From positions 1 to 50,071 of the IMG/VR virus record IMGVR_UViG_3300028920_000008: a stretch of 50,071 bases of DNA. One strand, 5' to 3'. Positions within the stretch are counted from its first letter, which is position 1. Each line of letters begins with the position of its first letter. The translations under genes were made by a program, and so were the position numbers. Origin of the DNA: a virus. Its lineage: Duplodnaviria > Caudoviricetes. This document shows positions 2,395-39,754 of this stretch, in pieces. Below the pieces are notes generated by a model. It was not told where the DNA came from and did no database searches. It was given only the letters and a program-made list of their open reading frames with translations.

Positions 2395-3858
2395 TTACTC
2401 CTCTTCGCCCTTCCTATCATCGGTTCCAGCATCCCCAGGCGTAAGCTTCTCTCTTTGATCTTCTATGTCAGCTTGATCGCCCTGCGTTCCTGATTGTGGG
2501 TTTTTCATACCAGAAGCCCTTGATAGAATTTTGACAGCATCAGGATATTTGTCCGCCAATTCTTGAATTGAATTAAGATCCTTGTCTAGTTTTGAAAGCT
2601 CTTCTTCCCATCCAATTTCTGGATTGTTTTCTTCGTGGAATGTGCTTGGAGATTTTGTTAGTGCCTGAATTTCGCCAAGCCCCCTCTTTGATCTTTTGCT
2701 TTGATCCTCAAAAGACACTGGAAGGGTGGTAATCCTATAGTCATCGCCAGTAAACTTGCCAGCAAGAAGAAGCTCTCTATTTATTAACGGCCTTAATATT
2801 TCATGATTTTCTTTTTTTATGATAGACTGTATAGCTCTTTTAAGCACTACTTCTTTTCTAAATAATTCTTCTCCCCCGCTTCCGTTGTTTATCATTCCGC
2901 TAAGTAGGTCTATTGGATAGTCTATCGCAATCGATAGAACCGACATAACCATCATAATATCTTCAACAGAACTCATTACTGTTTTTGTCCCACCAAACTC
3001 GTCTATCTCGTGTTTTCCATCTATGAACAAATCTGTTGTGTTTGATCTTAGCTGTTGACCAACATTCCTCATGTATTGACTGATCAGCGCGGGGTCTGTT
3101 CCAGAGTTTGATTTCCTTCCAACATAATGAACCCGAAGCTTCTGTGCCGCAAGATGTCTCATTATTGCAGAATCTTCAAGTAACATCATCGCCATGTTGA
3201 ATATCTTTATTCCGCTCGCCCACATCGACCAGCCATACCTGAAGAATCTTCCCTTGTACGGATCGTTCCTTCCGTGAATAATCTTCGCCCATCCAAACCA
3301 CGAAATAACATCATCAAACAATCCATTTGATATGTCTTGAACCTGAGCAAAAGATCTGGAGAATGGTGGTGAAAACCTGTCGAGATCGTCTGTGTTCCTG
3401 AGCATTGTTTCTGTTGGCATTGGTATTACATTTGATATGTATGCAACCCTGCCAGGACTGATCGACTCAACAAATTCGAGTTGCCCCCAAAAATCTCCGT
3501 CGCGCAACATCATATAGAGGAATTCTTTCCTCTTTTCTTGATACTCTGTCCTTTTTAGCAGATCGTGTATTATTTTTTTCTTTCTGCTTGGTGCGTCGAT
3601 TTTGACTTCATTTGCTGTTGCATCTTCGCATAGCTTTTCAAGTGCCTTGTCAGCGATGGCACCTTCTCTGCCCATGTCTCGCAAGTCGGAAATCATTTTT
3701 TTTCTGTCAACCTGGCCGACAGTATTGGCTATCTTGTCAAAGCCTTGCATGAGAATTTCTTGGGAAGATCCAAACCCTCTTGCGCTATACTTTTCTACCG
3801 GCCTCTCATCTGTAGCGGTTGGCCTTAGCATTTCTGTGATTCTTTGGACGATGCTCAT
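2395..3858 (-). CDS. Portal protein
   Basis: 487 aa directly after TerL; MLRDGDFW, YGWSMW, MLLEDSAIMRHLAAQKLRVHYVG resemble portal motifs. Confidence 0.8.
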   Translation of the reverse strand: MSIVQRITEMLRPTATDERPVEKYSARGFGSSQEILMQGFDKIANTVGQVDRKKMISDLRDMGREGAIADKALEKLCEDATANEVKIDAPSRKKKIIHDLLKRTEYQEKRKEFLYMMLRDGDFWGQLEFVESISPGRVAYISNVIPMPTETMLRNTDDLDRFSPPFSRSFAQVQDISNGLFDDVISWFGWAKIIHGRNDPYKGRFFRYGWSMWASGIKIFNMAMMLLEDSAIMRHLAAQKLRVHYVGRKSNSGTDPALISQYMRNVGQQLRSNTTDLFIDGKHEIDEFGGTKTVMSSVEDIMMVMSVLSIAIDYPIDLLSGMINNGSGGEELFRKEVVLKRAIQSIIKKENHEILRPLINRELLLAGKFTGDDYRITTLPVSFEDQSKRSKRGLGEIQALTKSPSTFHEENNPEIGWEEELSKLDKDLNSIQELADKYPDAVKILSRASGMKNPQSGTQGDQADIEDQREKLTPGDAGTDDRKGEEE

Positions 3859-5585
3859 TTTCTTATGATTCCCAATCTTTTAGCAGACTGATTTACTAAC
3901 GATTGATATTGCGAAATCGAGAAAGAAGTTATTATTCCGCCAGAAAAAGAACCAGTATCAGCAATTGGTATCGAGTCAAGACCATAGTCCTCTATAATTT
4001 GCTGATACGCAAACGATAGGCAGTCCATCAAGTCGCTTGTATATCCCTGCCCCCACTTCCCTTTGTGGTCAAGTCTTGGCACATTCTGGCCTGATTCTGA
4101 TGGATCTTTTGGAATGTAACATCTTCTTTCGTCCTCAAATGCTGATGATTCTGGTTGTTTGTATGTGCCGTGAACCATGTCAACTTTTGCGAGAGACATC
4201 GATCTTAATATCTTTGCTGTTTCGTTGCTTCCTGGGATCACTTCCCCAAACTCACCGCGGAGTACAGATATATATCCGCTATTGCCACAACATATAATCT
4301 TTGCTCGTTGAAAAACTGCCTTGATTTTTTTGACTCTATCAAGGAATGTATCCTCTAAGTCCATCAGATACTTTCCGTGAGATATTGCCCTTATGTGTTC
4401 TCTGTTTCTTGACACTTGAAGCAGAAGATATGCAGAAAAATCTCCTTCTTCTAGTTGTTTGAACCTATTTGGATCTAGTGCAAGATAAAAGTTTCCGTCG
4501 TGTGTTACGCCATCTTCTGCTAATTGCTTGATTTCCTCATAGTCGAGCCAGTCAATCGAGTCGTCTATTGACTTTGCCCATACCGGCCACGGGAAGAAAA
4601 GACCTTCTTCTGATTGGAATTGCCCTCTAACCTCTCTGTTATATATAGGGGCGGCACCCGCTCTTTGTAGCCTCTCCCTAAAGTCGAGCAGTATATCAAG
4701 GTTGGTAAACTTGTTGTGGTAAGAAGCAAAGTTGTATTTCATCACAGAGTCTCCTGGGTTCTGATACATCTCGTATATCTCGCCAGATTTGCCCCACGGA
4801 GTAGAAGTGATAAATATGCCGCTAAAGCAATTCCCAACCTGAAGTGATGGCCTCATAACCTCATTGATTATACTTGGCGCTCTTGTAAAGCACGCCTCAT
4901 CAAAAAGATAGACAATTGTGCATCTAACATCATCACCATATCTGTTCTTTATTACATCTGCGTGAAAACCGCGAGTTGTTCTTCCGTCAACACCAGCGGT
5001 TCTAATGAATATCTCAGATCCATTTATGAATTTTATATATGTTTTTGTATCTTCGGAAACAAAAGAATACAGCGTTTCATTTGACTCAAGCGCCTGATGT
5101 ATTGAATTTCTCAGAAGAAGCGCTGTATCCTTTGTGTTTCCTACTACAATTACTTTTGTCGGAACGGGCCTGTCGCACTTAAACATCAAAGCCCTAATGT
5201 AAGGCTCTATTGTCGCCTCCATTATCGCTTTCTGCGTGTTCATTATCGCTGACTTTCCAGTTCCACGGCCTGTAATCATCAGCGTAATTGGCTTTTTGCC
5301 CATAAGCGAATTTGATATCACAGCCGACTGATACGGCGTTCCGACAAAAAACGGGCACCCGTTTTTATAATCAAGCTTAGATACATTTGGGCAATCCTTC
5401 TTCATATCACCGGCAGGGCATTTTTCTGATGCGTAATATGCACAGTCCTCGTTTGCGCAATACGCAAGAGGCTTTTTCATGCCAAACGCATCAGCGAATA
5501 TACGCGGATTGTGAAGTTTCACAATATCGCTTATAGCTTCCCTGTCGTTAAATATGAATCCGGATTTAGCCAAACAGCTTTCCAA
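3855..5585 (-). CDS. terL: Terminase large subunit
   Basis: Walker A GRGTGKS, Walker B YLFDEA, ITSTPWG motif, nuclease region LALDP...DFSA...DLMDCL; start codon uncertain. Confidence 0.9.
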   Translation of the reverse strand: MESCLAKSGFIFNDREAISDIVKLHNPRIFADAFGMKKPLAYCANEDCAYYASEKCPAGDMKKDCPNVSKLDYKNGCPFFVGTPYQSAVISNSLMGKKPITLMITGRGTGKSAIMNTQKAIMEATIEPYIRALMFKCDRPVPTKVIVVGNTKDTALLLRNSIHQALESNETLYSFVSEDTKTYIKFINGSEIFIRTAGVDGRTTRGFHADVIKNRYGDDVRCTIVYLFDEACFTRAPSIINEVMRPSLQVGNCFSGIFITSTPWGKSGEIYEMYQNPGDSVMKYNFASYHNKFTNLDILLDFRERLQRAGAAPIYNREVRGQFQSEEGLFFPWPVWAKSIDDSIDWLDYEEIKQLAEDGVTHDGNFYLALDPNRFKQLEEGDFSAYLLLQVSRNREHIRAISHGKYLMDLEDTFLDRVKKIKAVFQRAKIICCGNSGYISVLRGEFGEVIPGSNETAKILRSMSLAKVDMVHGTYKQPESSAFEDERRCYIPKDPSESGQNVPRLDHKGKWGQGYTSDLMDCLSFAYQQIIEDYGLDSIPIADTGSFSGGIITSFSISQYQSLVNQSAKRLGIIRK

Positions 5586-6889: not shown

Positions 6890-7348
6890 CTACTCCTCAA
6901 GAAATGGATCTACAAAAGCAACAATTCTTGGCCTTGTCATAAACGGCCTTATTTTGATATATGCGTTTTGATTTATAGCATCTTGCGTAGTTTTTGTCCT
7001 TGACCCTCCGCCAGATGCTCCAATAGAAAGCTCGTCGTTTATGCAGTATTCGATGTGAATTACTGCTCCAGCTTGATTTGCCCAAAAAACAAGACATCCT
7101 TCTCTTGGCTCTTGCATCGAAAGATCTTTGAATCTCTCGTACAACCCACTTGCAGTCCAATCGCCTTTTCGCGGAAGAATTCCCACGCTTTTTAGTATCT
7201 CTATGCAAAAACCAGAGCAATCAAAACCAGATGGATCGTCCCCTCCCCACAGATATGGCACGCCAAGAAATGACATAGCAACGCTTGTTGCAATTTTTCT
7301 TCTATCCCATTGTTGCATCGTCTGAACCGTTTGTTTCGATGTGTCCAA
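6890..7348 (-). CDS. NlpC/P60 peptidase, probable endolysin
   Basis: GVPYLWGG...GFDCSG catalytic Cys motif, downstream His (VIHI). Confidence 0.9.
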   Translation of the reverse strand: MDTSKQTVQTMQQWDRRKIATSVAMSFLGVPYLWGGDDPSGFDCSGFCIEILKSVGILPRKGDWTASGLYERFKDLSMQEPREGCLVFWANQAGAVIHIEYCINDELSIGASGGGSRTKTTQDAINQNAYIKIRPFMTRPRIVAFVDPFLEE

Positions 7349-8929: not shown

Positions 8930-9045
8930 CCTATCCTGTGAGGGGGGACAGGATTGCGGCACTCCTGATCCCCCCATCATGTTGCCGCATGACGGGAACG
9001 AGAGGTTTTGATATGATACTGACCCGCGTCATTGTGTGCGACAAC
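8930..9045 (-). ncRNA. Structured intergenic RNA candidate (two hairpins with alternative pairings)
   Basis: GTTGTCGCA/TGCGGCAAC and GGGGGGATCAGGA/TCCTGTCCCCCC stems on the minus strand. Confidence 0.4.
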
Positions 9046-9064
9046 AAAAACTGTGATATTATCA

Positions 9065-9790
9065 TTATAATGTCTTGCTTCTCTCAAGCTCTGCGTCAAC
9101 AATCTTCTCTTTAGAACCCCCGCCCATCTCGTTCTCTGTTTCCTGATATGATTTCATCGGCTTTTTGAGCGTGGCAAGGACAGATCTGTTGTGTTGATTT
9201 ATCTCAGACATAGGACTCGCAACCCCACCATCATTATCTTCGCGTGGATCACCTCCATGACCCATCCTTGCCATATCCGCTCTTGCTGCTAGAAACTCCA
9301 TCTGCAATTCGGGAAGTGTCTCTGCTTGCAAAGATGCAGTTTTCAAGAATTCTGCCAACGCATCATTGTCAGGCTCGTCTGGACGTTTATTCCCTGTTAC
9401 GCCCAAATACGACAAAGCCTGATTAATACTTGCTACGGCCCGATTGAATGAAGTTGTCAATTTCGTAAGGCTATCAATAGATGCATCTTCCCCACTTACA
9501 CCGGCGGCGACACTCTTGTAAATTTCCTGAATTGTCAGGACGCCCGTTATAATCAGGTTCGCTTGAAATCGGTCTGCCATCCGGAAAAGTTCATTTTTGG
9601 ATCCTCGTAATTCTACGAGCTGCATCCATTTGATAATGTCCTTCTCGTCAATCTGGATAGTAGCAAGTGCGGATTGGAGAGTCCCCTTCTTCGGTCGCCC
9701 GCGCTTTGCCCCGACACGAGAGCCACTGGAAGAAGTAGTGTCTTTAGGATCTCCGGTTGGATTCTTTCTTGGTCGGCCTGGCTTCGCCAT
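9065..9790 (-). CDS. DNA-binding protein with AT-hook-like motifs; terminase small subunit candidate
   Basis: KPGRPRK and KRGRPKK motifs, helical core; first gene of the late block; likely ATG at 9790. Confidence 0.5.
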   Translation of the reverse strand: MAKPGRPRKNPTGDPKDTTSSSGSRVGAKRGRPKKGTLQSALATIQIDEKDIIKWMQLVELRGSKNELFRMADRFQANLIITGVLTIQEIYKSVAAGVSGEDASIDSLTKLTTSFNRAVASINQALSYLGVTGNKRPDEPDNDALAEFLKTASLQAETLPELQMEFLAARADMARMGHGGDPREDNDGGVASPMSEINQHNRSVLATLKKPMKSYQETENEMGGGSKEKIVDAELERSKTL

Positions 9791-9865
9791 CAGAGGCACT
9801 TCCCTTCTGATGGCAACATCCCAGAAACTCAATATATAGTCAATACTTATCTTCAGTTGAGTGTA

Positions 9866-9885
9866 GCTTATAAGCGCTTATAAGC
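9866..9885. promoter_or_regulatory. Perfect 20-bp palindrome GCTTATAAGCGCTTATAAGC (operator candidate)
   Basis: Seen directly, upstream of the late block. Confidence 0.6.
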
Positions 9886-10166
9886 ATATCTCTCTCGATT
9901 TTTTAGATAATAGATTGTATTCTTGTTATTTTGATCGGATCTTTGTTGTTACTCGATCGGTACATTATTTGTTTATCGGTGGTTATGAGATTAGATGGAG
10001 ATATTGGATGCTAGATGAAAAATTGGTCGAGCGTGTGATGTGGACTAGGTAGAGGAGATCTTTTCCGGTAAAGTGTAAGAAAATACCATATACACCGTTT
10101 TTTACGTTTAAATTGTAAGATATAGTGAAACAAAGTAAGCGCAACAAAAACAACATTTTACGCAGG

Positions 10167-10194
10167 ATGTCGCATAACATATATTATGTTAACT
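10167..10194 (+). other. dif-like XerC/XerD recombination site
   Basis: ATGTCGCATAA-CATATA-TTATGTTAACT versus E. coli dif GGTGCGCATAA-TGTATA-TTATGTTAAAT; 11-6-11 layout, XerD arm 10/11 identical. Confidence 0.8.
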
Positions 10195-10480
10195 AAGTAG
10201 GCTAAGCGCTTTATTTACAACGTGTTATGGTATGGCGTGCGGTATAGTGTAGAATATATGCTATTGTTGTATGATATGGCTAACATGTTGCACTATAATA
10301 CACTATGGCGACACATGGCGTAACTAGTCAACCATACCGCAATAGTCCGTTTTCACCTATGCAATTATTATGCCAAAACAAATAAACCGCCGCTTTTTTC
10401 AAAAAACATGCCAAAAAGACACCTATTTTTAACCGCTTTCGCCGTTTCACGTAAACCGCAAAAAATAGTTTTTTTCTTGC

Positions 10481-10509
10481 TTTACATACCGCTTGCCGTT
10501 TGGTACGCT
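10481..10509 (+). promoter_or_regulatory. Sigma70-type early promoter
   Basis: TTTACA-17 bp-TACGCT with extended -10 TG and an A/T-rich upstream tract. Confidence 0.6.
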
Positions 10510-10592
10510 TTCTATACGTAGAAAAATAGGGAAACCGTTAGATGGTAAGAATTGATTTTTTCCTACTTTCGGGTTAGCGGTTTCATTCCTAT

Positions 10593-10604
10593 TGTTCTTT
10601 GACA
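10593..10604 (+). promoter_or_regulatory. boxA-like antitermination element
   Basis: TGTTCTTTGACA versus rrn boxA TGCTCTTTAACA; follows a leader hairpin (10525-10593). Confidence 0.5.
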
Positions 10605-10698
10605 ACCGAACCGAACCGAAAGCGCCGTTTTATTTAACTAAGCGGTTAACATTAAATTAGTGTACTAGTTTTTTAGTGTTAACTTAGGGGTTAATACA

Positions 10699-11421
10699 AT
10701 GGCGAATAAATTCGACGTTCTACGTGAAGAACGTGAAGAGTTGTTACTTTCTATTGAAGCGCTGAAAGCGTCAACACACAAGAACGCGCCCGCGCTTCTT
10801 AAGAAAGTAGAAACTAAATTAGCAGACGTTGAAAGCGAAATCGAAGCGAACCGCAAGGAATTTGAATTGTCCGAAGTTTGCAATTCGCTTTCCAACGTCA
10901 AAGGGAACCCGTCCGAAGTTTTTGCTTCCGCTTGTAAAAAAGCGGGAATAGATTATAACTGTCGGTTGTACGTTGACTTCACCTTTTCAACGGGAACCGC
11001 GGTTATGGCTGTTAAACCCGCAATTATTCGGACGTCCCGTGAAAGTGTCATTTCGTGGAATGGAATGCCACTTCCGAAAAAATTGTCGGTGAATTTGTCG
11101 GACAACAAAGCGGAAATGACAGAATTCACGCGAACCGCAAGTTTCGATGGAGAAACCGACTTCGCTTCGTGGGAAACCGCTTTCCGCGCTTTGCTTTCCT
11201 GTTATGGCGAATTGCCGAAAGCGTATGATTCCTACAACGTAGACTTTCAAGCACGGCAAGGGAAAAAATCCCGCTTTGAAAGCGCAAGCGCAAGGAACAA
11301 ACTGGAGCGGTTAACACGTTCTACGGTTTCTATGGGTTCATTCTTCGAAGTGACACCTACGGGAAAGCACGGTGAAGCAACCGAAAGCGCAAGCAAAGAA
11401 ACAACCGACAAAAAGCCGTAA
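10699..11421 (+). CDS. First early gene, 240-aa orphan (N-terminal coiled coil)
   Basis: Own promoter, atypical codon usage, downstream hairpin. Confidence 0.8.
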   Translation: MANKFDVLREEREELLLSIEALKASTHKNAPALLKKVETKLADVESEIEANRKEFELSEVCNSLSNVKGNPSEVFASACKKAGIDYNCRLYVDFTFSTGTAVMAVKPAIIRTSRESVISWNGMPLPKKLSVNLSDNKAEMTEFTRTASFDGETDFASWETAFRALLSCYGELPKAYDSYNVDFQARQGKKSRFESASARNKLERLTRSTVSMGSFFEVTPTGKHGEATESASKETTDKKP

Positions 11422-11434
11422 ATGTCAACCGAAC

Positions 11435-11475
11435 AATTGACACAATTAATACGGTTTTTGCCGTTTGTGTCAATT
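11435..11475 (+). terminator. Hairpin after the first early gene
   Basis: AATTGACACA...TGTGTCAATT stem followed by T-rich sequence. Confidence 0.4.
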
Positions 11476-11869
11476 CACGGTTTTGCGGTTGCGGTAGTTT
11501 GTTTCTGGTTGTTTCTTGCGCTTGTTTCGGTTGCTTCTGGTAAAAACCGCAATAGTTAAATTCGGTTGTTTTCGGTTCGGTTTCGGTTGTTTTTGGCACA
11601 GTTTTTTTTGTCTTGCTATTACAAAATATCTGATTTTTCTTTATATAGTGAAACCGTGTGAAAGCGGTTTTTTGTGTTTTAAGCATATAATTAAGTTAAA
11701 AATGATTCGGTTTTACCGCAAAAAAGCGGAAATATCAAAACGGTTTGGCGACAAGGGAAAAAGAGAATCTTTTGCTACCATTGGAAATATATCGAGTTTT
11801 TCGTGGGGTTTTTGGGCGGTGGCTGTTTTGTTGTGTTTCGAAATCTGAAAACTTGAAAGGAGGTGAAGT

Positions 11870-12061
11870 GTGGAAAAGATATCAAATTCTCGCGAGCCTC
11901 GACGCGGCGACAATGTGATGGTGCCGAACGGTGAAGAAAAGCCGATATTTGGCACTATTGAAAACATTGACGTTGATTCGAAGGTAGCGATAATTAAATT
12001 AGAGGGATACGGATACCGTGTCTCTATTCCGGTTGTTGCCGTTACACAGATATTAGTGTAG
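11870..12061 (+). CDS. Small KOW/SH3-like protein
   Basis: RRGDNVMV...FGTIENID...VAIIKL; AAAGGAGG RBS. Confidence 0.55.
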   Translation: MEKISNSREPRRGDNVMVPNGEEKPIFGTIENIDVDSKVAIIKLEGYGYRVSIPVVAVTQILV

Positions 12062-16077: not shown

Positions 16078-16626
16078 ATGTCATCAAATGATTTGCTTAA
16101 AGTCAAACTTGTTTTGACAGATAAGAGTGAGGTTGTTTGTCGCGATGTCAGACAAGAAACAGTGGCAGATAGCCCGACGTGGAACAGATATCGTGCGCTG
16201 CTCCAAGAGTGGAAGATGAAACAGGAGCCTACAAACGAGCTAATCGAGCTTCTGATTGAGTTTCTTCCGATTGACATCGAGCTGTTGCTTTGGGAGAAGT
16301 ACGATGGAGGAGATAGTGACGGATATCAAAGAGCAGTTGATAGATTTAGTCACGAGCTTCCATGCGAGAACGGTCTGATGGAGTTTAGGGATGAGCTTGT
16401 AAGGCTCTACTCTGACGCAGATCTTGCTGATAGATCAATCGAAGATCTTGAGGAGATGTTGCTTGAAATGAAGGAGTACAAAAACATAACTGTAAGTTTG
16501 ATTTGTGATAAAATCAAACGCGCAGTTGAAAGTGCTTGTGCGCTCATCAATCAAGCAAGAGATGTTGGAGGATATGATTCTGATATTGAATCATATATTG
16601 ATCTCCTGAGAGAGATAAGGACATAA
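16078..16626 (+). CDS. Acidic helical hypothetical protein
   Basis: AGGAGG RBS. Confidence 0.65.
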   Translation: MSSNDLLKVKLVLTDKSEVVCRDVRQETVADSPTWNRYRALLQEWKMKQEPTNELIELLIEFLPIDIELLLWEKYDGGDSDGYQRAVDRFSHELPCENGLMEFRDELVRLYSDADLADRSIEDLEEMLLEMKEYKNITVSLICDKIKRAVESACALINQARDVGGYDSDIESYIDLLREIRT

Positions 16627-16643: not shown

Positions 16644-17093
16644 ATGCCAAGAGAGCGAAAATCATACGATATCCGTATGATAAAAAAATACAGAATACTC
16701 GAAAGGCCATCAATAAAAGGCCCAAGAGATGCTGTGAATCACGCAATTAAAATCGGGATGTTCAAAAAAGATCCCGACAAGGAGGTTTTCTACGCCTACT
16801 ATCTCAGCACAAAGAACGAGATAATAGTGGTTGATACTATCTCAATTGGATCTCTAAATGCGTCAATTGTTCATCCGAGAGAGATACTCAAACCTGCGAT
16901 ATTAAATTCTGCTGCGGCGATTCTTATGATGCACAATCATCCAACAGGAGACCCCGCACCATCAAAAGAGGATATAGAATTTACGCGCAGATTCAATCAG
17001 TGCTGCGAGCTGATTGGAATTCAGTTGCTAGATCATGTTATCGTTGGAGCTGATGGTAAATACCATAGCTGCAAAGAGAACGGATCCATCTAG
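16644..17093 (+). CDS. radC: RadC-like JAB/MPN domain protein
   Basis: E...GSLNASIVHPREI...HNHPTGDPAPSKED...LLDHVIVG. Confidence 0.92.
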   Translation: MPRERKSYDIRMIKKYRILERPSIKGPRDAVNHAIKIGMFKKDPDKEVFYAYYLSTKNEIIVVDTISIGSLNASIVHPREILKPAILNSAAAILMMHNHPTGDPAPSKEDIEFTRRFNQCCELIGIQLLDHVIVGADGKYHSCKENGSI

Positions 17094-18213: not shown

Positions 18214-18471
18214 ATGATAAGAACAAAAGCAGAAGTTGACCTAAGCATAGAGATCCTGGGAAAGATGTCAGAGCTTGTTGATCTGGAGAAAGAGCTTGTA
18301 GCAACAAAAATAAAGGGACAAATCAAGAGCAACAAGGCGTCGGAAAAAAATCACACAAAGCAAACAATCATAAGCGATGGCGTTGCTGAGTTTCTTGCAA
18401 AGATCGACAAAACAATCAATCGAATAGACTCAATCCTATCAGTAAGAGATGGGAGAAAGACAGCTAGGTAG
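18214..18471 (+). CDS. Hypothetical helical protein
   Basis: AGGAG RBS before ATG 18214. Confidence 0.55.
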   Translation: MIRTKAEVDLSIEILGKMSELVDLEKELVATKIKGQIKSNKASEKNHTKQTIISDGVAEFLAKIDKTINRIDSILSVRDGRKTAR

Positions 18472-18513
18472 CGGATATTTACGGTATTCCGCAAAACTTA
18501 GTCTATAATTTTG

Positions 18514-18543
18514 TTGACGGCACAAGCTGTTACGTGCTATAGT
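18514..18543 (+). promoter_or_regulatory. Sigma70-type promoter
   Basis: TTGACG-18 bp-TATAGT with extended -10 TG. Confidence 0.6.
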
Positions 18544-18572
18544 TTTATCATAGTGTAAGAAAGGGGTTTTTC

Positions 18573-18842
18573 TTGATACAAGAATCTTCATCTGTTGGCC
18601 GCTTAAATCCGCGAGTCCCCGTGAGATTTAAAAACGAGCGGGCACAAAAAGTATATCAACAAATAACCAAAAGAATAGAAGTCCATCAAAGATCGGCTGA
18701 TGAAGCTGAGGCTTTCGAGTCTTTTGGCAAGATGGTTGATAGAATCTCCAGGATGGAGGAGCTTGATTGGGTAGTCGCGCATCTTAAGAGACTATTCAGC
18801 TTCGAGGAAATAGAAGAAGATACAACCGATCGAGAGGGCTAA
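18573..18842 (+). CDS. Hypothetical protein
   Basis: Downstream of the promoter; AAGGGG RBS. Confidence 0.55.
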   Translation: MIQESSSVGRLNPRVPVRFKNERAQKVYQQITKRIEVHQRSADEAEAFESFGKMVDRISRMEELDWVVAHLKRLFSFEEIEEDTTDREG

Positions 18843-18980
18843 ATCCTATAGCTGGCAAGCTGATCCTTTCTGTGTCTTTTCGGTCGGTTTTTAATTGATG
18901 GGCCGGGGCCACTCTCTCCCGAAACCCCTTGCTCGACGTGGCTCCGGTTCCATCTTAACTCTTAAAAATAGGAAGGTGAT

Positions 18981-22522: not shown

Positions 22523-24115
22523 ATGTGCGACGTAGTAGAAAAATATTTCCCAAAGCAACCGCCATTTAACGGAAAACCACGCGATGCCCAGGGAGATGTG
22601 ATAGAGCGCATGTATCAGGCCGTCGTTGGGGGTAAGCGATTCTTAGTAATCGCTGCCCCCACCGGAGCTGGTAAAAGCGCGATACTATACACTCTTGCAA
22701 ATGCTATTTGCGATCTGAATGGCGTTGACCACAGACTTGATGGAAGCGGTGCGATATTCACAACGTCACAAAAAGTCTTGCAAGATCAGTATGAAGAAGA
22801 TTTTCAAGACATGTTTGTAATGAAGGGCAGGGGGAACTATCCATGCAAACAGCCAGTCGAGTCAGAAGAATCGAACAACTGTGATGCAGGGATATGCCTG
22901 TTCAGAGAAACAAAACCAGACTGCGATACCTCTTGTCCATACAAGCAAGCAAAAATACAAGCACAACTTAGCAAGTTGATTGTAACAAATTTTGCTTACT
23001 TTATCGGAGAAAGCAACAACGTAAACGCCTTTGGAAAGAGGCGTGTTTTGATGATAGATGAAGCGCACAACATAGAGTCTGCATTGATGAGCTATGTTGA
23101 GTGTGGCATATCAGAGGCCGGCCTGAAGTTTTGCGGGCTGGAGAGGATAGTGCCAATATTTGATCGCTTCGGCCAGTACGAAGATTTTCTTGTCCAGCTA
23201 TCAAAAGATGCAAAAGAAAGAGCAATTGACCTTAAAGGCGAGATGGAGCAAAATCCTAGCACTGTCTTTACCGACAAGGCAAAGCAATACGATAGGGCCA
23301 TGAAGCTTTTTCAGAAAACATCTTTCATAAGATTTCACGCAGAAACATGCAAGTGGATACCAGACGCCGATGCAGACAAAAGGAAGGTTGTTTTTAAGCC
23401 GATAAATGTAAGCCCATTTGCAAGAAATCTTGTGTTTGCATTTGGCGACATCAACATTCTTTCTTCTGCCACAATCAGCAAGAGCTACGTCAAAAACTGT
23501 CTTGGAATCCCAGATAGCGACTTCGAATATTTCGAGGTTCCATCTACGTTTCCCGTAGAAAACAGGCCAATCTACGCCATGAACGCTGGAAAGATGGGCT
23601 ACAGATATCTTGAGAAATCGCTTCCAAATATAGTCAGGAAAATAGATGCGATTATAGATCAATTCCCCGACAGCAAAGGGATAATACATGCTACTTCATA
23701 CAAGATAGCAAAGTATGTCTCGTTGCACTCAAGACATGCTGAAAGATTTATATCGCACAACTCTGTAGATAGGATAGAGAGGCTAAGGGATCATATGAAA
23801 TCTCCAGAGCCAACAATACTTCTGTCTCCATCGATGACAGAAGGTGTAGACCTGAAGGGCGATCTTTCTCGCTTCCAGATTATTGTAAAAATCCCATACG
23901 CTTCACTTGGGGACAAACAGATAAAAGCCAGAATGGAAGAAGATAAAATCTGGTATGCCAATCTCGCCGCCGTCACCCTGATGCAAGCATATGGAAGATC
24001 AATAAGGAGCAAATCTGATACGGCGATTACTTTTGTTCTTGACTCTGCATTCAAGTATTTTGTAAAAAGCAACGATCATCTCTTTTGCAATTGGTTTAAG
24101 GAGGCAATTAGATGA
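22523..24115 (+). CDS. DinG/Rad3(XPD)-family SF2 helicase
   Basis: APTGAGKS, LQDQY, KGRGNYPC with Cys cluster, IDEAH, LSSAT, EGVD, QAYGRSIR. Confidence 0.9.
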   Translation: MCDVVEKYFPKQPPFNGKPRDAQGDVIERMYQAVVGGKRFLVIAAPTGAGKSAILYTLANAICDLNGVDHRLDGSGAIFTTSQKVLQDQYEEDFQDMFVMKGRGNYPCKQPVESEESNNCDAGICLFRETKPDCDTSCPYKQAKIQAQLSKLIVTNFAYFIGESNNVNAFGKRRVLMIDEAHNIESALMSYVECGISEAGLKFCGLERIVPIFDRFGQYEDFLVQLSKDAKERAIDLKGEMEQNPSTVFTDKAKQYDRAMKLFQKTSFIRFHAETCKWIPDADADKRKVVFKPINVSPFARNLVFAFGDINILSSATISKSYVKNCLGIPDSDFEYFEVPSTFPVENRPIYAMNAGKMGYRYLEKSLPNIVRKIDAIIDQFPDSKGIIHATSYKIAKYVSLHSRHAERFISHNSVDRIERLRDHMKSPEPTILLSPSMTEGVDLKGDLSRFQIIVKIPYASLGDKQIKARMEEDKIWYANLAAVTLMQAYGRSIRSKSDTAITFVLDSAFKYFVKSNDHLFCNWFKEAIR

Positions 24116-24798: not shown

Positions 24799-27363
24799 TT
24801 GATATCTTACACCATACAGGGTGTAGATGTTCTTGAAGAAAAGTCTGTGTCTGGAGATAATGAATCTCTTTGCACTTGTCCTTCTTGCGGAAGACAAAAA
24901 CTGTATATTAATAAATCTGGCGGAGAGAAAGATGGGCTTTTCGAATGCAAAGTCTGCGGACTCTCTGGAAAAGTAGAAAACCACAATAGCACTTCGCGAA
25001 AAAAGAGCATCAAGCCAGAAAAGAAAAAAGACCAAATAAGCGATGAGGTCGTACACAGATATATAGACAAGCTTGTAAACTCATGCAAGATTAATGAGTT
25101 TGTCAGATCCTATTTCTCAAAAAAGAAGATACCAATTGGATTGGTGGAACAATACAGAATAGGATATTCTGAAGAGCTACCAGATTACGATGATATGAAA
25201 ATCGCAAGGCGGTTGGGCCTTGTGAATGAGAAGCTAAATAACCGCTTTTACAAGCGAATTGTTATGCCGGTTATGGCGAAGGGGCGTTGGGTGTATTTAA
25301 CGTCAAGGGCTGTTGGTATTTCAAGTCCAGCGAAGTATATGGACATAAGTCTAAAGAAAAGAATATTTCGCGAGGATGCAATAGATAGTAATAACAGAAT
25401 ATTTTTATGCGAGGGCATACCAGACACGCTATCAATGATAGCAAATGGATATGATTCTGCAATAGGAATACTTGGCTCTCAAGTTTTCAAGGAAGATTAT
25501 AAGGAAAAGTTAAGAAACAAAGAAATCATTATTTGCTATGACAATGATTTTGCCGGAAGAAGAAGCACTGTTCATATCGCGAACATAATGTCTGCCGCTG
25601 GATCTAGGGTATCATCAATAACACTTGGGGAAGGGCAGGATGTATCTGATTTCTTTGCCGCAAATAAGGGCAAAAAACTAGAGATAGTCCCAATAGAAAA
25701 GATAGAAAAAGAGCAAAAGATACTCCTGTTCTCCAGGGCAGAGCCAAATCTGTTGGTGTATTCGTTTGGTCATTATGAAATCAGGGCAAGTGACATCACG
25801 CCAAGAAAGGGATCTCTAAGGGCTACGGTGTCGGTATTTAATAGTACAAAAATACTTGCATCGTCAAATTTTGATCTTACTTCAATGAGGCTTCGCGCAA
25901 CATACGCAAAAGAGTTTGTTGCAAATGCAAGCGATGTCGCAGAGCCAGAAGCAAAATCGATGTTGATGGATCTTGCAAACGCAATAAAGCAAAATCTGCA
26001 AGAACAGGAAGAAACAGCAGAAGAAAAACAAGTATATATAATGAGCGATAAGGAGAAGGAAAGCGCACAAAAGATGTTGTGCGACCCGCTCCTACTATAT
26101 AGGATAAAACGCGCACTTGATAGACAGGAGGTTGTTGGGGAGGATATAAACAAACTGTTGTTATATTTGATATACACATCTCGCCTAATGAAAAAGCCGA
26201 TATCGTGTCTAATCAAAGGACTCTCAAGTTCTGGAAAAACATATTTGATGGGCAAGGTTTTGAGCCTTATTCCACCAGAGGGCCACATCACAATCCAACA
26301 GGCAACTGGCCGTGCGCTGTATTATATGGGAGAGCTTGATTTAAAACACAAGATGATAATTATAGGCGAGATGCACGGAGCAGAAGAAACACAATATTCT
26401 TTGCGAGAGGCACAGGATGGAATTGGTGAGGGCGACCTGATTATTGCTACCGTAGAAAAGGATCCTGATACAAACCAGAATCAAACGGTAATAAAGAGGG
26501 TTGCTGGCCCGTGCGGATTTGTTTCATCGACAACTTCGGTTGAAATTAATCCAGAAAACGAGACAAGAAACTTTTCTATATATGTAAAAATAGATGAAAA
26601 CAAAGTAAAAGATACTGCATCAACGCTTGTAGACAAATATCTTGGCAAGTCTAACGTATTATCGCAAGATGAACTTCTGTTGTTTCACAACGCACAGAGA
26701 AGCCTACAAACAAATATGATGGTGCGTATTCCTTATATAAAATACGTGCTAGATAGATTTCCGTCGTCGCCAATCAGGGTCATGCGGGACAGGGTTAGAT
26801 TTTGTGTGTTGCTTGAGACAATAGCAATAATACATCAGTTCCAAAGAGAAATATCAGAAGATGAAGATGGACAAAGATGGATAACAGCTTCAATATCTGA
26901 TTACAACATAGCACTCGCCTTGATGAACGAGATCTTGGTTGAGACAATCTATGAATTGCCAGCCAAGTCAAGAGAGATATATAGTGTTGTTGTTGAGATG
27001 AGAGATGAATTTGTAGAAAACTCAGACACGTCGTCCATAATAGACGATGAAGATAAGGCAAAATTATTCAACGCAACATATAAGCAAATAGGCGAAAGAA
27101 TGAACATGAAGGCGGCTGATATCAGAAGGTGGTCAAAGCCGCTTTTTGAGGCCGGCTATTTCGAATATGCCGATACTGGAGAAAAAAACTCTGGAGGAAG
27201 GGGGAAGCAAACAAAATTGATTCCTGTTGACAAGGAATTTTACCACGGATTCCTTCCTTCTCCAGATGAGATTGCAAATTATTTCGGCATGTTTGATGAG
27301 ACACTATACAATCCAATAACAGGAGAAACAAGAGAAATAGAAAGGATGGAGGTAGACCTTTGA
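24799..27363 (+). CDS. Primase-helicase (Zn finger + DnaG-type TOPRIM + P-loop ATPase)
   Basis: CPSC...CKVC, FYKRIVMP, LCEGIPD, CYDNDFAG, GLSSSGKT. Confidence 0.88.
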   Translation: MISYTIQGVDVLEEKSVSGDNESLCTCPSCGRQKLYINKSGGEKDGLFECKVCGLSGKVENHNSTSRKKSIKPEKKKDQISDEVVHRYIDKLVNSCKINEFVRSYFSKKKIPIGLVEQYRIGYSEELPDYDDMKIARRLGLVNEKLNNRFYKRIVMPVMAKGRWVYLTSRAVGISSPAKYMDISLKKRIFREDAIDSNNRIFLCEGIPDTLSMIANGYDSAIGILGSQVFKEDYKEKLRNKEIIICYDNDFAGRRSTVHIANIMSAAGSRVSSITLGEGQDVSDFFAANKGKKLEIVPIEKIEKEQKILLFSRAEPNLLVYSFGHYEIRASDITPRKGSLRATVSVFNSTKILASSNFDLTSMRLRATYAKEFVANASDVAEPEAKSMLMDLANAIKQNLQEQEETAEEKQVYIMSDKEKESAQKMLCDPLLLYRIKRALDRQEVVGEDINKLLLYLIYTSRLMKKPISCLIKGLSSSGKTYLMGKVLSLIPPEGHITIQQATGRALYYMGELDLKHKMIIIGEMHGAEETQYSLREAQDGIGEGDLIIATVEKDPDTNQNQTVIKRVAGPCGFVSSTTSVEINPENETRNFSIYVKIDENKVKDTASTLVDKYLGKSNVLSQDELLLFHNAQRSLQTNMMVRIPYIKYVLDRFPSSPIRVMRDRVRFCVLLETIAIIHQFQREISEDEDGQRWITASISDYNIALALMNEILVETIYELPAKSREIYSVVVEMRDEFVENSDTSSIIDDEDKAKLFNATYKQIGERMNMKAADIRRWSKPLFEAGYFEYADTGEKNSGGRGKQTKLIPVDKEFYHGFLPSPDEIANYFGMFDETLYNPITGETREIERMEVDL

Positions 27364-27821: not shown

Positions 27822-28200
27822 CTTTGTGAATTGTTTCACAGAAAACCGTTCAAACCGTTCAAATCGGCTGTACGGTTTAGTTAGGTGCAACTAACTTATA
27901 TATATGTTTGATATATATAGGATTAACAGTTTGTGAATTGTTTCACAGAAAACCGTTCAAAAGATCCGGGAGGTTCAAGGGTATAGTTAGAGAAGCGAAA
28001 AATAACCCATCCTCTTTCCAGAGATTTTTGGCAATCGGGGGAAAAAACTTAACTCGTTATTTTTCAACGACCTTCCAGTTGCCCCCGCTTGATACCGTGA
28101 ACGGTTTAACAGTTTTGTTAACTTGTTTGTTTTCAATGACTATAAACCGTACAAGCGATTTGAACGGTTTGAACGGTTTTCCGTGAAAAGATTCACAAAG
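27822..28200. repeat. Probable replication origin: 58-bp inverted repeats, 32-bp direct repeat, AT-rich spacer
   Basis: 27822-27879 versus reverse complement of 28143-28200 (53/58); 27930-27961 repeats 27823-27854; AACCGTTCA iterons; just downstream of the primase-helicase. Confidence 0.75.
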
Positions 28201-34302: not shown

Positions 34303-34429
34303 CTCGTTTAGTTTCAACAGCTTGCTCAAAATTCAAATATAAGCGCGTAAAATATTAGTGCCCTACCAACGAATCAAGGTGGTCTATTATGCGTGCTTAT
34401 ATTCGCTTATAAAGAGGAGGATTTGGGCC

Positions 34430-35074
34430 GTGAAAACGATCGGAATTGACATTGGCAGAGCAAACACGGGATTGGTAATTTTTGACAATGATGAAAAGTC
34501 CATCGTTGCAAATGCCACAATTCAATTACCAATAGCGAAGGTTCGCAAGGTTTCTCCGTTTAATGCGACTTCGCACAGGCTTTATTTTCTACAGCAGAAT
34601 CTGAAAACTTTTATACTTGGCCCTGGTGGATTCAAGAAGGGCGATAAGGCTCTCGCGGTTATTGAGGACTATGCCTATGGCGATCAAAGGATGACGCTTG
34701 AGCAATTCAGAAAAATGGACAAAATGTCACTGGAGGTGGGTGAAGCCCACGGGATTGTGTATGCAGCACTAGCAGAGATTGGAATACCGATGATTAAGGT
34801 GGCCCCATCTCAAATGAAATATTTTATTGCCGGCGATGGCCAATGTGAAAAAACACAGATAATCAAAACAATGCACAAAACATATAGGGTTCCGCTTGAC
34901 GATGACCATCAATATGATGCACTTGCCCTGTGTCACATGGGGAGATATTATATCATATTTTGCTCAAGCCCAGGAGTAATAAAAGAGGGCACGTACGAAT
35001 ACAACACAATGATCAACATCGCATTTGACATGAGACACGCGGCGGTATCTAAAATATTCGGGCTAAAGCTGTAG
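34430..35074 (+). CDS. RuvC-like Holliday junction resolvase
   Basis: IGIDIGRANTG, VIEDY, EAHG, PSQMK, DHQYDALAL; GTG start after GAGGAGG. Confidence 0.85.
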   Translation: MKTIGIDIGRANTGLVIFDNDEKSIVANATIQLPIAKVRKVSPFNATSHRLYFLQQNLKTFILGPGGFKKGDKALAVIEDYAYGDQRMTLEQFRKMDKMSLEVGEAHGIVYAALAEIGIPMIKVAPSQMKYFIAGDGQCEKTQIIKTMHKTYRVPLDDDHQYDALALCHMGRYYIIFCSSPGVIKEGTYEYNTMINIAFDMRHAAVSKIFGLKL

Positions 35075-38000: not shown

Positions 38001-39754
38001 AGAAATACAGCTATCGCCTCAACTCTGACGGTAGACGCTGTAGATCCGCGTTGCGTCATTGATGAAAAGTCTTTGTTGCATACCCAAAACTCAGACCCAG
38101 TTGTTGTTGGATTATTTGTGTTGTTTCTATTTCTTTCTTTTATGAATAATATTTTTTGAACACCAGAATCATCAAATAGCAATAGGCTTCTTATTACGCC
38201 AGCCCAATATGAAGATGCATCTATAACATCATAATAATCATAAGTATATCCTGTTGTCACCCCGTTGTATATTGATGCCCAAAACCCGAGACTATATACA
38301 TGTGATGCTGTATAAGTATTTTTCTCGTATTTTGTTTCGTTTATTGTTACATTTGGGCCAACAAGAGCAGCCCATCCACTTCCGTCTTTCGGCAATTTAT
38401 ACAATAATGATTCTCCAACCCATGCGGCACTTCCAAGCGGAGATGGCTCTGTAAATATCTGATTGCAAACAGTAGATACTGAGATATAAAGATTTTCTCC
38501 ATCGACGGCCATTCCATAGCAGGCACGTACTGTGCGTTGAAACGTGTTGTTATTATTTATATGGGTGAAATTTGCAGAATAAAATGCACCAGTAAAATTT
38601 AGATCATATCCAGCAGATGGATCATAGACAACAGCCTGTGGGACTGCGTATATTCTGCCTACATACTCATCACCCTCTCCAGATGTAAGCATTTTCCTTA
38701 TTTCTATATACCCACCCTCAAATGTATTTGGTGCATATATCTTTTTTGAGTAGTATATGTAATTTCCGTCGGTACAAAAAGAATGTGTCTTTACGCCATC
38801 TATAAGTTTCTTTGGAATGGCAGGTTCAAGATATGTTTCTCCTACTATTTCAGACGAAACCGTTACAATCTCAGGATCTTCAGACTTTACTATTTGAATC
38901 AGCATGTCCCCGTCTTGCCTACATATATATTTATCAATTATTTCATGGATCTGACCGCCTTCAACAAGCGGGACTTGATAGATTGTCTTTGCAACCCATC
39001 CGGATTCACCGGCAAGAAGATTTACAGACCACTTTCTTACATTAAAAGACGCAAGAAGGATCCAATTTTTTTCTTCCCAATCAGGGCCGAGAAATCTTAT
39101 TTCAACGGTGACACGAACACCGGCCCTTTTTGGTATTGCGGCAGACCCAGATATTGTTCCGGTTGGGCTTGTCTTTGTTTGAATATATCTGGGAAGGGTG
39201 AGAGTCTTTTGCTTGCCCCAACTTCCGTCCATGTTGTTTATAGATATAGAAACAAATGGCAACCTAATAGAGCCAAGCATATCTCCGCAGTTATTTTCTA
39301 TCCTTATGTCGTTTCCTATATAATCAGAAATATCCGACCATGCTTCTGCATTTATCCAGACGTAAGATGGGTGTGTTGTGTCTGTCGGGTCTGATTCTTT
39401 GTATTCTGTAAATCTAAACTTTTTGCCCCAAACAGAATATTTCAAAGCTATGTTTGTTGATCCGCCATGCTTGATTGTTTTTGCAACAACCCAATTACCA
39501 TCTATGTCCTCATACTCTGCCTTTATTACATCGTACCCACTAGAAATTACAAGCGAAAAAGACTTTAGCCAAATCTCCGTAGTTATTGAATATTCACCGC
39601 TTGAAGATGAATAATCTGTCGGGGTTCCCGATTCGTACGTAGATGGAGATGCCTCGCTGTACATCTTTACGCGCACTTCGTACTTTTTTGTAAAGCGTTC
39701 TATTTCAGATATTTCTGTACTTGTCAGATTTGAAGGCAGTAATGTTCCCATCAA
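35063..39754 (-). CDS. Large tail tip/hub and receptor-binding protein
   Basis: 1563 aa, S/T/Y/G-rich; hub-like C-terminus (VDNDLIQ...PFDPRLRPGAIV); last late gene. Confidence 0.75.
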   Translation of the reverse strand: MMGTLLPSNLTSTEISEIERFTKKYEVRVKMYSEASPSTYESGTPTDYSSSSGEYSITTEIWLKSFSLVISSGYDVIKAEYEDIDGNWVVAKTIKHGGSTNIALKYSVWGKKFRFTEYKESDPTDTTHPSYVWINAEAWSDISDYIGNDIRIENNCGDMLGSIRLPFVSISINNMDGSWGKQKTLTLPRYIQTKTSPTGTISGSAAIPKRAGVRVTVEIRFLGPDWEEKNWILLASFNVRKWSVNLLAGESGWVAKTIYQVPLVEGGQIHEIIDKYICRQDGDMLIQIVKSEDPEIVTVSSEIVGETYLEPAIPKKLIDGVKTHSFCTDGNYIYYSKKIYAPNTFEGGYIEIRKMLTSGEGDEYVGRIYAVPQAVVYDPSAGYDLNFTGAFYSANFTHINNNNTFQRTVRACYGMAVDGENLYISVSTVCNQIFTEPSPLGSAAWVGESLLYKLPKDGSGWAALVGPNVTINETKYEKNTYTASHVYSLGFWASIYNGVTTGYTYDYYDVIDASSYWAGVIRSLLLFDDSGVQKILFIKERNRNNTNNPTTTGSEFWVCNKDFSSMTQRGSTASTVRVEAIAVFLDSLMFVHWSTWSSGVLQSRYLGLLERSYSGDFSIASYGSAMLSEWFYSMQFILNGIYAAGNYYDGGVYNYTNESEAADGIKEKYNCVFQLGGFNICHYQHEERNDFLSNPEPNIMIGGNPISYDVAKYLGEYVDGEHYVTMGWALNLKTGELILRQAYASLDPLEVTASYDFYRSVMFYQADAESRLDDNGLGKLASASDRNYFINEAGMIERLKFIETQEIPVRHVINDYSEVSEDLGEKTDGGIYGLRLSYDYVSSNDCLTSFQFTPKFDGYLESFRIPVKILKSGTVPGGSDIPIDVDIYIADETTGEVDYMSTDGNKPVSPPTSADIQTLISDTMYISVARATKLISGSTYDSDYYWMSFDLSSASHKVYADKNYGLIIRCASTGTYLQYRILAKIVSNSNNRFITYQSGITNGSSITAISSSSWVMGAIDTSPSVAIGVVQMKRTKQELKSVDIVDSLNPNISSGFSSIDAGDDTSIRVRNSDLTVEYDRGASDDYQITYSGGRFYVDFDISGSAILDSIDNVVIVSWFDSKTDLLTLTDIDDIVEEQSEFGDHTTYLRTIVKGTKLSPTDAPARINKRFDLYPGILLGIESENMHQQKAEASSMYDWNEKTKTWDLRDANSENSSKFDFEFKDPFVTGTTGYIVRTGKGLSSDKIASGTANYLSTHDVPLFYRVNASVGFADDSYHVMLHPSCYKEWRLATSADYPDMSGNCVGTAPTSASDVKTSDHFYLKHMNNAFGESQAQYIAYESEEKRFYVDANGVLIEDDSYDPLGPKNHLGSVFPSKIIYVLLTPSDLAGNPMFAAHGVSGKDGYDSSMSFNVKEYHACKIDRADISAFGVDVIYSNFGVKYKRFLEMQVTGYPVNKQLDIKAERRNDGYLHADAKTLLVDNDLIQVDAIANRTAMMLHDFWGKERIRFSKTVPFDPRLRPGAIVKVTSEFEGLDGNMFYVTNPKSLLSLSDGLKTVLGNFLQL

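Follow-up and report, generated by a model that had tools for sequence, protein, structure and literature searches.

In this work, a dif-type site was examined in the complete IMG/VR record IMGVR_UViG_3300028920_000008 (Duplodnaviria; Caudoviricetes), whose whole length of 50,071 bases is referred to here as the window. The XerCD/dif system is used by filamentous phages such as CTXphi for integration and by plasmids (cer/psi) for dimer resolution, and the window is the genome of a tailed phage. The same 127 bases stand at its start and at its end, an overlap that points to a circular assembly. The site is housed in a gap poor in open reading frames (ORFs), from which two gene blocks diverge (Table 1). 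The leftward, late block on the minus strand extends from 9832 round the junction to 35063, and the rightward, early block on the plus strand extends from 10699 to 35074. The sign of the GC skew flips at ~10 kb and ~35 kb, and the site region is the minimum of the cumulative GC skew. The initial annotation had described an 11-6-11 site bracketed by TAAGCGC elements, at the point where early and late genes diverge, in a phage with no recombinase gene. The site and both elements are present, the gap and the skew flip at ~10 kb mark the divergence point, and profile searches returned no recombinase.

Table 1. Positions of the dif-type site, of the elements around it and of the genes recognised in the window.
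Feature	Position	Strand	Remarks
dif-type site	10167-10194	+	11-6-11: ATGTCGCATAA CATATA TTATGTTAACT
XerC-type arm ATGTCGCATAA	10167-10177	+	10/11 to Desulfovibrio vulgaris Hildenborough dif, as printed in PMC2731167 Table 1
Central region CATATA, 6 bp	10178-10183	+	read from sequence
XerD-type arm TTATGTTAACT	10184-10194	+	11/11 to D. vulgaris dif and 10/11 to E. coli K12 dif, as printed in PMC2731167 Table 1
TAAGCGC motif	10136-10142	+	25 bp ahead of site
TAAGCGCTTT	10203-10212	+	9 bp past site; TAAGCGC at 10203-10209; includes palindrome AAGCGCTT
20-bp palindrome GCTTATAAGCGCTTATAAGC	9866-9885		tandem, self-complementary 10-mer; includes TAAGCGC
ORF-poor gap between diverging late and early blocks	9833-10698		866 bp; houses dif-type site
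First late-block gene, 255 amino acids	9065-9832	-	without PHROG or Pfam match; homologues P0002-P0004, 47-64% identity
First early-block gene, 240 amino acids	10699-11421	+	without PHROG or Pfam match; no relatives found among viral contigs
TerL	3855-5585	-	phrog_2, 5.4e-23
Head-morphogenesis match	2395-3858	minus-strand block	
Tail-protein domain	6890-7348	minus-strand block	
RadC-like JAB protein	16644-17093	plus-strand block	PF04002, 5.9e-39
Helicase	22523-24115	+	phrog_2488, 2.5e-106
Primase	24799-27363	+	
RuvC-like Holliday-junction resolvase	34358-35074	plus-strand block	PF02075, 3.9e-07

Sequence of the site and search for a recombinase

The presence of a dif-type site in the window is confirmed. 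Its 28 bp have the layout of dif, namely two 11-bp arms with inverted inner halves (CATAA-N6-TTATG) around a 6-bp centre. The dif of D. vulgaris Hildenborough is printed as ATGTCCCATAA TGTAAA TTATGTTAACT (Carnoy & Roten 2009, PMC2731167 Table 1). The arms of the window site agree with it at 21 of 22 bases, including all six outer arm bases, which are not part of the core pattern used to select sites, and the centre agrees at 3 of 6 (PMC2731167). The arms share 17 of 22 bases with the printed dif of E. coli K12, and the inner seven bases of the XerC arm, CGCATAA, are those of E. coli (PMC2731167 Table 1). The XerD arm, which is the better conserved arm of dif sites, is the one matched completely by D. 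vulgaris (PMC2731167). The initial annotation had proposed a comparison with dif sites to predict the host. The agreement of the arms with D. vulgaris stood, but the dif of Bacillus thuringiensis ends in the same XerD arm as the window site (PMC8116677), so this arm alone names no host. Like the chromosomal dif of D. vulgaris and E. coli K12, the window site has the 11-6-11 form, the better conserved XerD arm and a single non-coding copy per replicon (PMC2731167). Unlike chromosomal dif, it is carried by a 50-kb phage, where it lies at diverging transcription and at the minimum of the cumulative GC skew and not at a replication terminus. Moreover, its centre CATATA differs from both of these printed dif centres (PMC2731167).

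The core pattern, CGCATAA-N6-TTATGTTAA, consists of the 16 bases common to the window site and the printed E. coli dif, and all 16 are exact in the window. By base composition and over both strands, such an exact core is expected 6.4e-5 times in the window genome. Only one site is present, and the runner-up matches 15 of the 22 arm bases; the best arm match in each of 30 shuffles was 15 to 19 of 22. A looser core test allowing ≤3 mismatches did not discriminate, with 1 match vs 0.54 expected. Overall, the site is likely a real target of XerC/XerD, at which binding and cutting would be expected.

A six-frame search of the whole record at E≤1 gave no match to PF00589 (Phage_integrase), PF00239 (Resolvase), PF00665 (rve) or PF12375 (DUF3653, XafT), and the same search gave none to ParB_N or AAA_31 (ParA) at E≤0.01. 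Matches to PF00589, PF00239 and PF00665 were obtained in most of 14 control genomes. At the level of profile searches, the window phage thus has no recombinase of its own. Furthermore, 40 ORFs were scanned against PHROGs and 30 against Pfam; most of them were without a match, so a very divergent recombinase could still be encoded. No repressor, integrase, partition protein, plasmid Rep or toxin-antitoxin pair was recognised among these scanned ORFs, most of which match no family, and the sole match of a plasmid or lysogeny type was a weak one to AbiEi_4 over 22 residues. No tRNA genes were found in the window. As pure speculation, the RuvC-like resolvase might finish a XerC-made junction without FtsK.

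Sites of the same type in other tailed phages

A first scan of IMG/VR with the 16-base core returned at least 119 loci. Among the matches listed, 72 of 121 core rows (the window row included) end in AT, where chance would give 1 in 16. Most printed proteobacterial dif sites also end in AT, and by this proportion the core matches in IMG/VR are mostly real dif-type sites. In a second scan, the exact 20-mer at 10174-10193 (centre and XerD arm) was found in 22 IMG/VR contigs. The site of one locus, L144, reads ATGTCTGATAA CATATA TTATGTTAACT and is identical to that of the window at 26 of 28 bases. L144 is a tailed-phage fragment with genes for TerL, a head protease and an HK97-type capsid protein, and the first gene of its packaging operon starts ~215 bp downstream of the site. 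By tblastn, no protein similarity of L144 to the window or to its relative G001 (see below) was detected.

The relation of the sites to TerL was surveyed with five TerL queries taken from these loci (match at E≤1e-4) over at least 140 loci holding the core or the right-half 20-mer. Among the matches listed, TerL was found in 48 of 140 loci, and in all 48 the site is upstream of TerL, 126-2468 bp ahead of its start; the other 92 loci had no match to the five queries. By type of TerL, the 48 loci comprise 31 of the L160 type, with a portal protein ~60% identical to that of HTVC010P-type pelagiphages, 12 of the L142 type, with a TerL 67% identical to that of the OM43 phage MEP301, 4 of the G003 type, and L144 itself. 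L160, L157 and 29 other loci represent a marine podovirus-like family in which the dif-type site lies ~300 bp upstream of TerL and its orientation flips within the family. Members of the HTVC010P-like group whose TerL are 98-99% identical differ in the centre of the site, which is CATATA, TATGTA or TCTATA. In the isolate HTVC010P of Pelagibacter, the best core match was 13/16 and inside a gene, with the reservation that the query core may not be the SAR11 dif. The Methylophilales phage MEP301 likewise gave 13/16 at best in the 10 kb around TerL, where the query core may not be the OM43 dif; no canonical site was seen in either isolate.

PF00589 was absent from dif-bearing records in both sets searched (0/5 and 0/11). 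The site is intergenic in G003, which is a tailed phage, and in the records G004 and G005. In G004 (109.7 kb, 61% GC; L006, L137), the site at 38904-38931 lies in a divergent gap beside a replication-protein gene (phrog_22671, 9.4e-60); this record also encodes two ParB_N genes, which points to a plasmid or phage-plasmid arrangement. G005 (complete, 72.8 kb; L036, L131) has its site at 42779-42806 in a 1.27-kb gap between converging genes, is without PF00589, and encodes a DNA polymerase, a primase-helicase and a ribonucleotide reductase. G007, G008 and G012 have a single site each and no flanking pair. G007 and G008 (L165-L169) have 26.6 kb in common at 99.7% identity, and their remaining 18.1 kb and 7.4 kb differ; either the early regions are mosaic or the assembly is chimeric.

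A cultured case was found with a 32-base query around the E. coli-type site of locus L013. It matched 146 phage records, of which 104 are named Escherichia, and one of them, Escherichia phage EdH4 (MK327930.1, Vequintavirus, 136,031 bp), was inspected. The first 459 bases of EdH4 are the same as the last 459, and both terminal repeats contain GGTGCGCATAA TGGGTA TTATGTTAAAT. The arms agree with the printed dif of E. coli K12 at 22 of 22 bases and the centre at 4 of 6 (PMC2731167). Thus, at least one lytic tailed phage has two direct host-type Xer sites, at both ends of its deposited genome. EdH4 is like the window phage in being an integrase-less tailed phage with the arms of a host-type dif and a centre unlike that in the chromosome. 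It is unlike the window phage in being an unrelated 136-kb myovirus, and its site stands in both ends of the record, whereas the window is known from contigs alone. The E. coli-type query also matched MG065635.1 and 17 other records named 'Campylobacter phage' (59-143 kb), whose names may misstate the host.

Relatives, control region and metagenome occurrence

No DNA match to 9000-12000 was found among cultured-phage genomes, and the best isolate match of TerL is an archaeal virus at 28% identity. Protein searches revealed a family of ~50 kb contigs with TerL 47-72% identical to that of the window, of which P0006 (72%, 48,380-bp contig) and P0007 (69%, 52,611 bp) are closer relatives known from their proteins. 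As single queries, the flank proteins and TerL had no match in viral contigs, and the flank-protein alignment A1 and P0004 had none in viral, metagenome or genome contigs. The TerL alignment A2 recovered three viral loci, one of them at full length (G001), and none in genome contigs. G001 has 50,714 bp and a TerL 50% identical to that of the window, is syntenic with it over ~20 genes, and is without PF00589. The homologue of the first late-block gene is at 18219-18968 in G001.

Of the elements in the gap, only the 20-bp palindrome GCTTATAAGCGCTTATAAGC is common to the window and G001 (16229-16248; 19-20 of 20-21 bases, E 0.002); it probably serves the late block as an operator or promoter. The gap holds three of the seven TAAGCGC copies of the genome, the third at 9871, vs 0.12 expected. 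The palindrome AAGCGCTT has only two copies in the genome (9872 and 10204), both inside the gap. The TAAGCGC copy ahead of the dif-type site is likely a half-site of the operator-like 20-bp palindrome, and we regard these motifs as operator-like elements that belong to the control region and not to the Xer site. AACCGC/GCGGTT motifs cluster at 10385-10647, with 5 copies in the gap vs ~0.6 expected. This cluster resembles iterons, and a replication origin may lie beside the dif-type site. Promoter-like hexamers were not enriched in the gap (4 vs 3.2 expected), nor were terminators in a scan for them. A weak promoter-like match (9/12) overlaps the site at 10157-10185. No Rfam family scored above or near threshold in the gap. 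Outside the gap, the plus-strand block also encodes a DNA methyltransferase and a MazG-type pyrophosphohydrolase, and two 9-bp arrays, AAACCGTTC ×2.3 and its reverse complement (27843-27863 and 28159-28179), flank the ORF 27908-28186.

The stretch is present in three marine-sediment metagenome runs from three studies, possibly including the run from which it came, and no RNA dataset is listed for it. In the contigs of these three runs, in which ends and rare forms are not visible, no phage-chromosome joint was found at the site, and contigs bridge it unchanged. Run X1 also contains a separate 2406-bp contig (depth 24.4 vs 30.2 for the phage) that matches 10174-10194 at 20 of 21 bases and has a different left arm. 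It may be the host dif, a hybrid junction or another element.

Possible uses of the site

Since the window carries a close copy of dif and no recombinase of its own, and since such sites occur in several unrelated tailed phages, the window phage probably borrows XerC/XerD from its host. We hypothesize that the phage keeps the 28-bp site for these host enzymes because it is without a recombinase of its own, and we infer binding, cutting and the type of reaction at the site. As its main use, we tentatively favour a reaction in which two copies of the site carried by the phage itself recombine, with a confidence that stays somewhat below even. It would proceed in one of two ways. In the first, host Xer would join the terminally redundant ends of the incoming DNA into a circle; in the second, it would convert replicating circles that are dimeric or catenated into monomers. 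Recombination of phage with phage is favoured by the canonical form of the site and because neither lysogeny genes nor integrated relatives were seen. By analogy, it is also suggested by the position of the site near packaging genes in other lineages and by the repeats of EdH4. The Cre/loxP system of phage P1 has a role in cyclisation, and loxP lies near pac. Cre/loxP also resolves dimers of the P1 prophage (PMC5357621). The likeness to P1 consists in a site for phage-with-phage recombination, which in the wider dif-bearing class is near packaging genes or in terminal repeats. P1 encodes its own recombinase, whereas the window phage would depend on that of its host.

Several observations weigh against this use. 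Lack of conservation in related phages, which the initial annotation had named as refuting its reading, is the outcome in G001, the one distant relative available for comparison. G001 is without a dif-type site; its core matches have 3 mismatches at best, the same as in a backwards-read control, and its best arm match of 16/22 is within the shuffle range. The site is therefore not essential to the phage family of the window, and on this one relative it would be a lineage-specific addition and not a family trait. By comparison of the two sequences, the marine-sediment lineage of the window appears to have acquired the site on its own. In addition, the site is 4.6 kb from TerL, vs a few hundred bases in the other families. 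Its location within the terminal redundancy of the window phage is an assumption, and contigs do not display virion ends. A 48,035-bp Logan contig of run X1 is without ~27.85-29.76 kb, as reckoned from coordinates. This stretch may be a variable region or may mark the physical ends; if it marks the ends, the site is outside the terminal repeat. The 48 loci with TerL are dominated by two families and amount to about four or five independent lineages, and among those listed the orientation of the site relative to TerL is mixed, with the XerC arm proximal in 29 and the XerD arm in 19. Canonical dif recombination requires septal FtsK (PMC5357621), which is a poor fit to a fast infection step. Finally, the named cellular relatives of the RadC-like protein are metagenome-assembled genomes (MAGs) of Chitinivibrionia, Krumholzibacteria and Latescibacterota, i.e., of the FCB group, and not Desulfovibrio. 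One relative of TerL was binned with an Ignavibacteria MAG, and together the two proteins give a weak hint of an FCB-group host.

Alternatively, the site could be an attP, by which a temperate phage would integrate at chromosomal dif via host XerC/XerD and later excise, in the manner of integrative mobile elements that exploit Xer (IMEXs). We regard this as unlikely. The window shares the two defining traits of IMEXs, the lack of a recombinase of its own and a dif-like site (PMC5357621), with CTXphi, VGJphi and TLCphi of Vibrio, the gonococcal genetic island (GGI), and dif-type prophages of double jelly-roll phages and gokushoviruses (PMC5357621, PMC12715192, PMC3025954, PMC7062461). A host dif or a hybrid junction may be what the 2406-bp contig of run X1 represents, and the different centres at 98-99% TerL identity in the HTVC010P-like phages are the outcome expected from exchange with different host dif sites. 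However, the IMEXs described in these papers are small non-tailed phages or islands integrated at dif (PMC5357621, PMC12715192, PMC3025954), whereas the site of the window is canonical and its carrier is a tailed phage of 50 kb. The attP of these IMEXs differs from dif by folding into a single-strand hairpin, by a degenerate XerD arm or by a centre that is heterologous, and XafT is encoded by TLCphi (PMC5357621, PMC3025954). In the window, a fold of the hairpin type was no better than in shuffles (z 0.56), DUF3653 was not found, and no integrated form was seen. With no hairpin and a canonical XerD arm, the site is of neither the CTX nor the TLC/GGI type of attP; the VGJ type, with a centre heterologous on the XerD side, can be judged only against the host dif. 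Moreover, with a canonical XerD arm a prophage would be open to quick excision by FtsK-XerCD, and in the stable IMEXs described the XerD arm is degenerate or the centre heterologous (PMC5357621, PMC3025954). Reads or relatives joined to chromosomal dif, which the initial annotation had proposed to look for, were found neither in the contigs of the three runs nor in the genome collection. This collection (185,579 species with one genome each, searched by pattern, in which host lineages may be missing) also held no relative of the flank proteins or TerL. The scanned ORFs include no repressor-like or other lysogeny gene, and G007, G008 and G012 have single sites instead of flanking pairs. In two Vibrio surveys, the tailed prophages depended on integrases (PMC12715192, PMC11630473). 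Of the three uses first proposed for the site (to integrate, to resolve circles or to circularise), integration is thus the least supported, and what stands of the initial interpretation is the real dif-type site, the divergence point and the lack of a detectable recombinase.

It is still less probable that the site has no Xer function and is a chance match, a remnant of host or plasmid DNA, or an operator of a phage regulator in a palindrome-rich control region. The absence from G001, the palindromic neighbours (the TAAGCGC copies and 9866-9885) and the weak promoter-like match across the site are consistent with this, and with ~250,000 windows scanned there were many chances for a rare match, which is said as reasoning and not as a count. 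Against it, the agreement with a printed dif extends to the six outer bases (PMC2731167), the core is expected at only 6.4e-5 per genome, and the location is intergenic. Furthermore, the protein-dissimilar L144 has its 26/28 site in a comparable location, and the share of AT endings among the listed core rows is far above 1 in 16.

In the plasmid sites cer of ColE1 and psi of pSC101, host proteins bind ~180 bp of accessory sequence. Like ColE1 and pSC101, the window is an extrachromosomal circle whose Xer core site lies near a likely replication control (PMC5357621); unlike in these plasmids, no partition or plasmid replication genes were found in it. That the phage persists as a plasmid-like episome (in a carrier state or as a phage-plasmid), with the site resolving multimers as cer and psi do, is the least probable explanation, since the circular assembly, the possible iterons beside the site and the proof from G004, with its Rep-adjacent site and ParB, that a plasmid-type arrangement exists in IMG/VR are set against a window without ParB_N or AAA_31 ParA in six frames and, apart from the weak AbiEi_4 match, without a recognised plasmid Rep, toxin-antitoxin pair or repressor among the scanned ORFs.

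In the papers cited here, Xer is exploited by plasmids, by filamentous phages and microviruses, by tailless double jelly-roll phages and by genomic islands (PMC5357621, PMC12715192, PMC3025954, PMC7062461). In a literature search that left subscription journals and supplements mostly outside, no account of a dif-type site in a tailed phage, EdH4 included, was found. New here are the terminase-proximal pattern of dif-type sites in IMG/VR and the marine-sediment lineage of the window. It is conceivable, and as a whole rather doubtful, that many integrase-less and apparently lytic tailed phages borrow Xer at a phage-borne dif, and that this step of their life cycle is widespread and has gone undescribed. 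The site would then stand at or near the packaging start or in terminal repeats, the host enzyme would circularise the incoming genome or resolve replicating forms, and the centre would be kept unlike that of chromosomal dif, which would avoid trapping in the chromosome. The marine HTVC010P-like podoviruses, the relatives of the OM43 phage, the Vequintaviruses of E. coli and the sediment phage of the window would be its examples. The window alone is of more modest value, as one more lineage with its own acquisition of such a site next to a relative at 50% TerL identity without one. If the broader reading is true, the arms and centre of the site would follow the dif of the host and thus provide a new signal for host prediction, and a dependency on the host would be added to the lytic cycle of integrase-less tailed phages without visible lysogeny genes.

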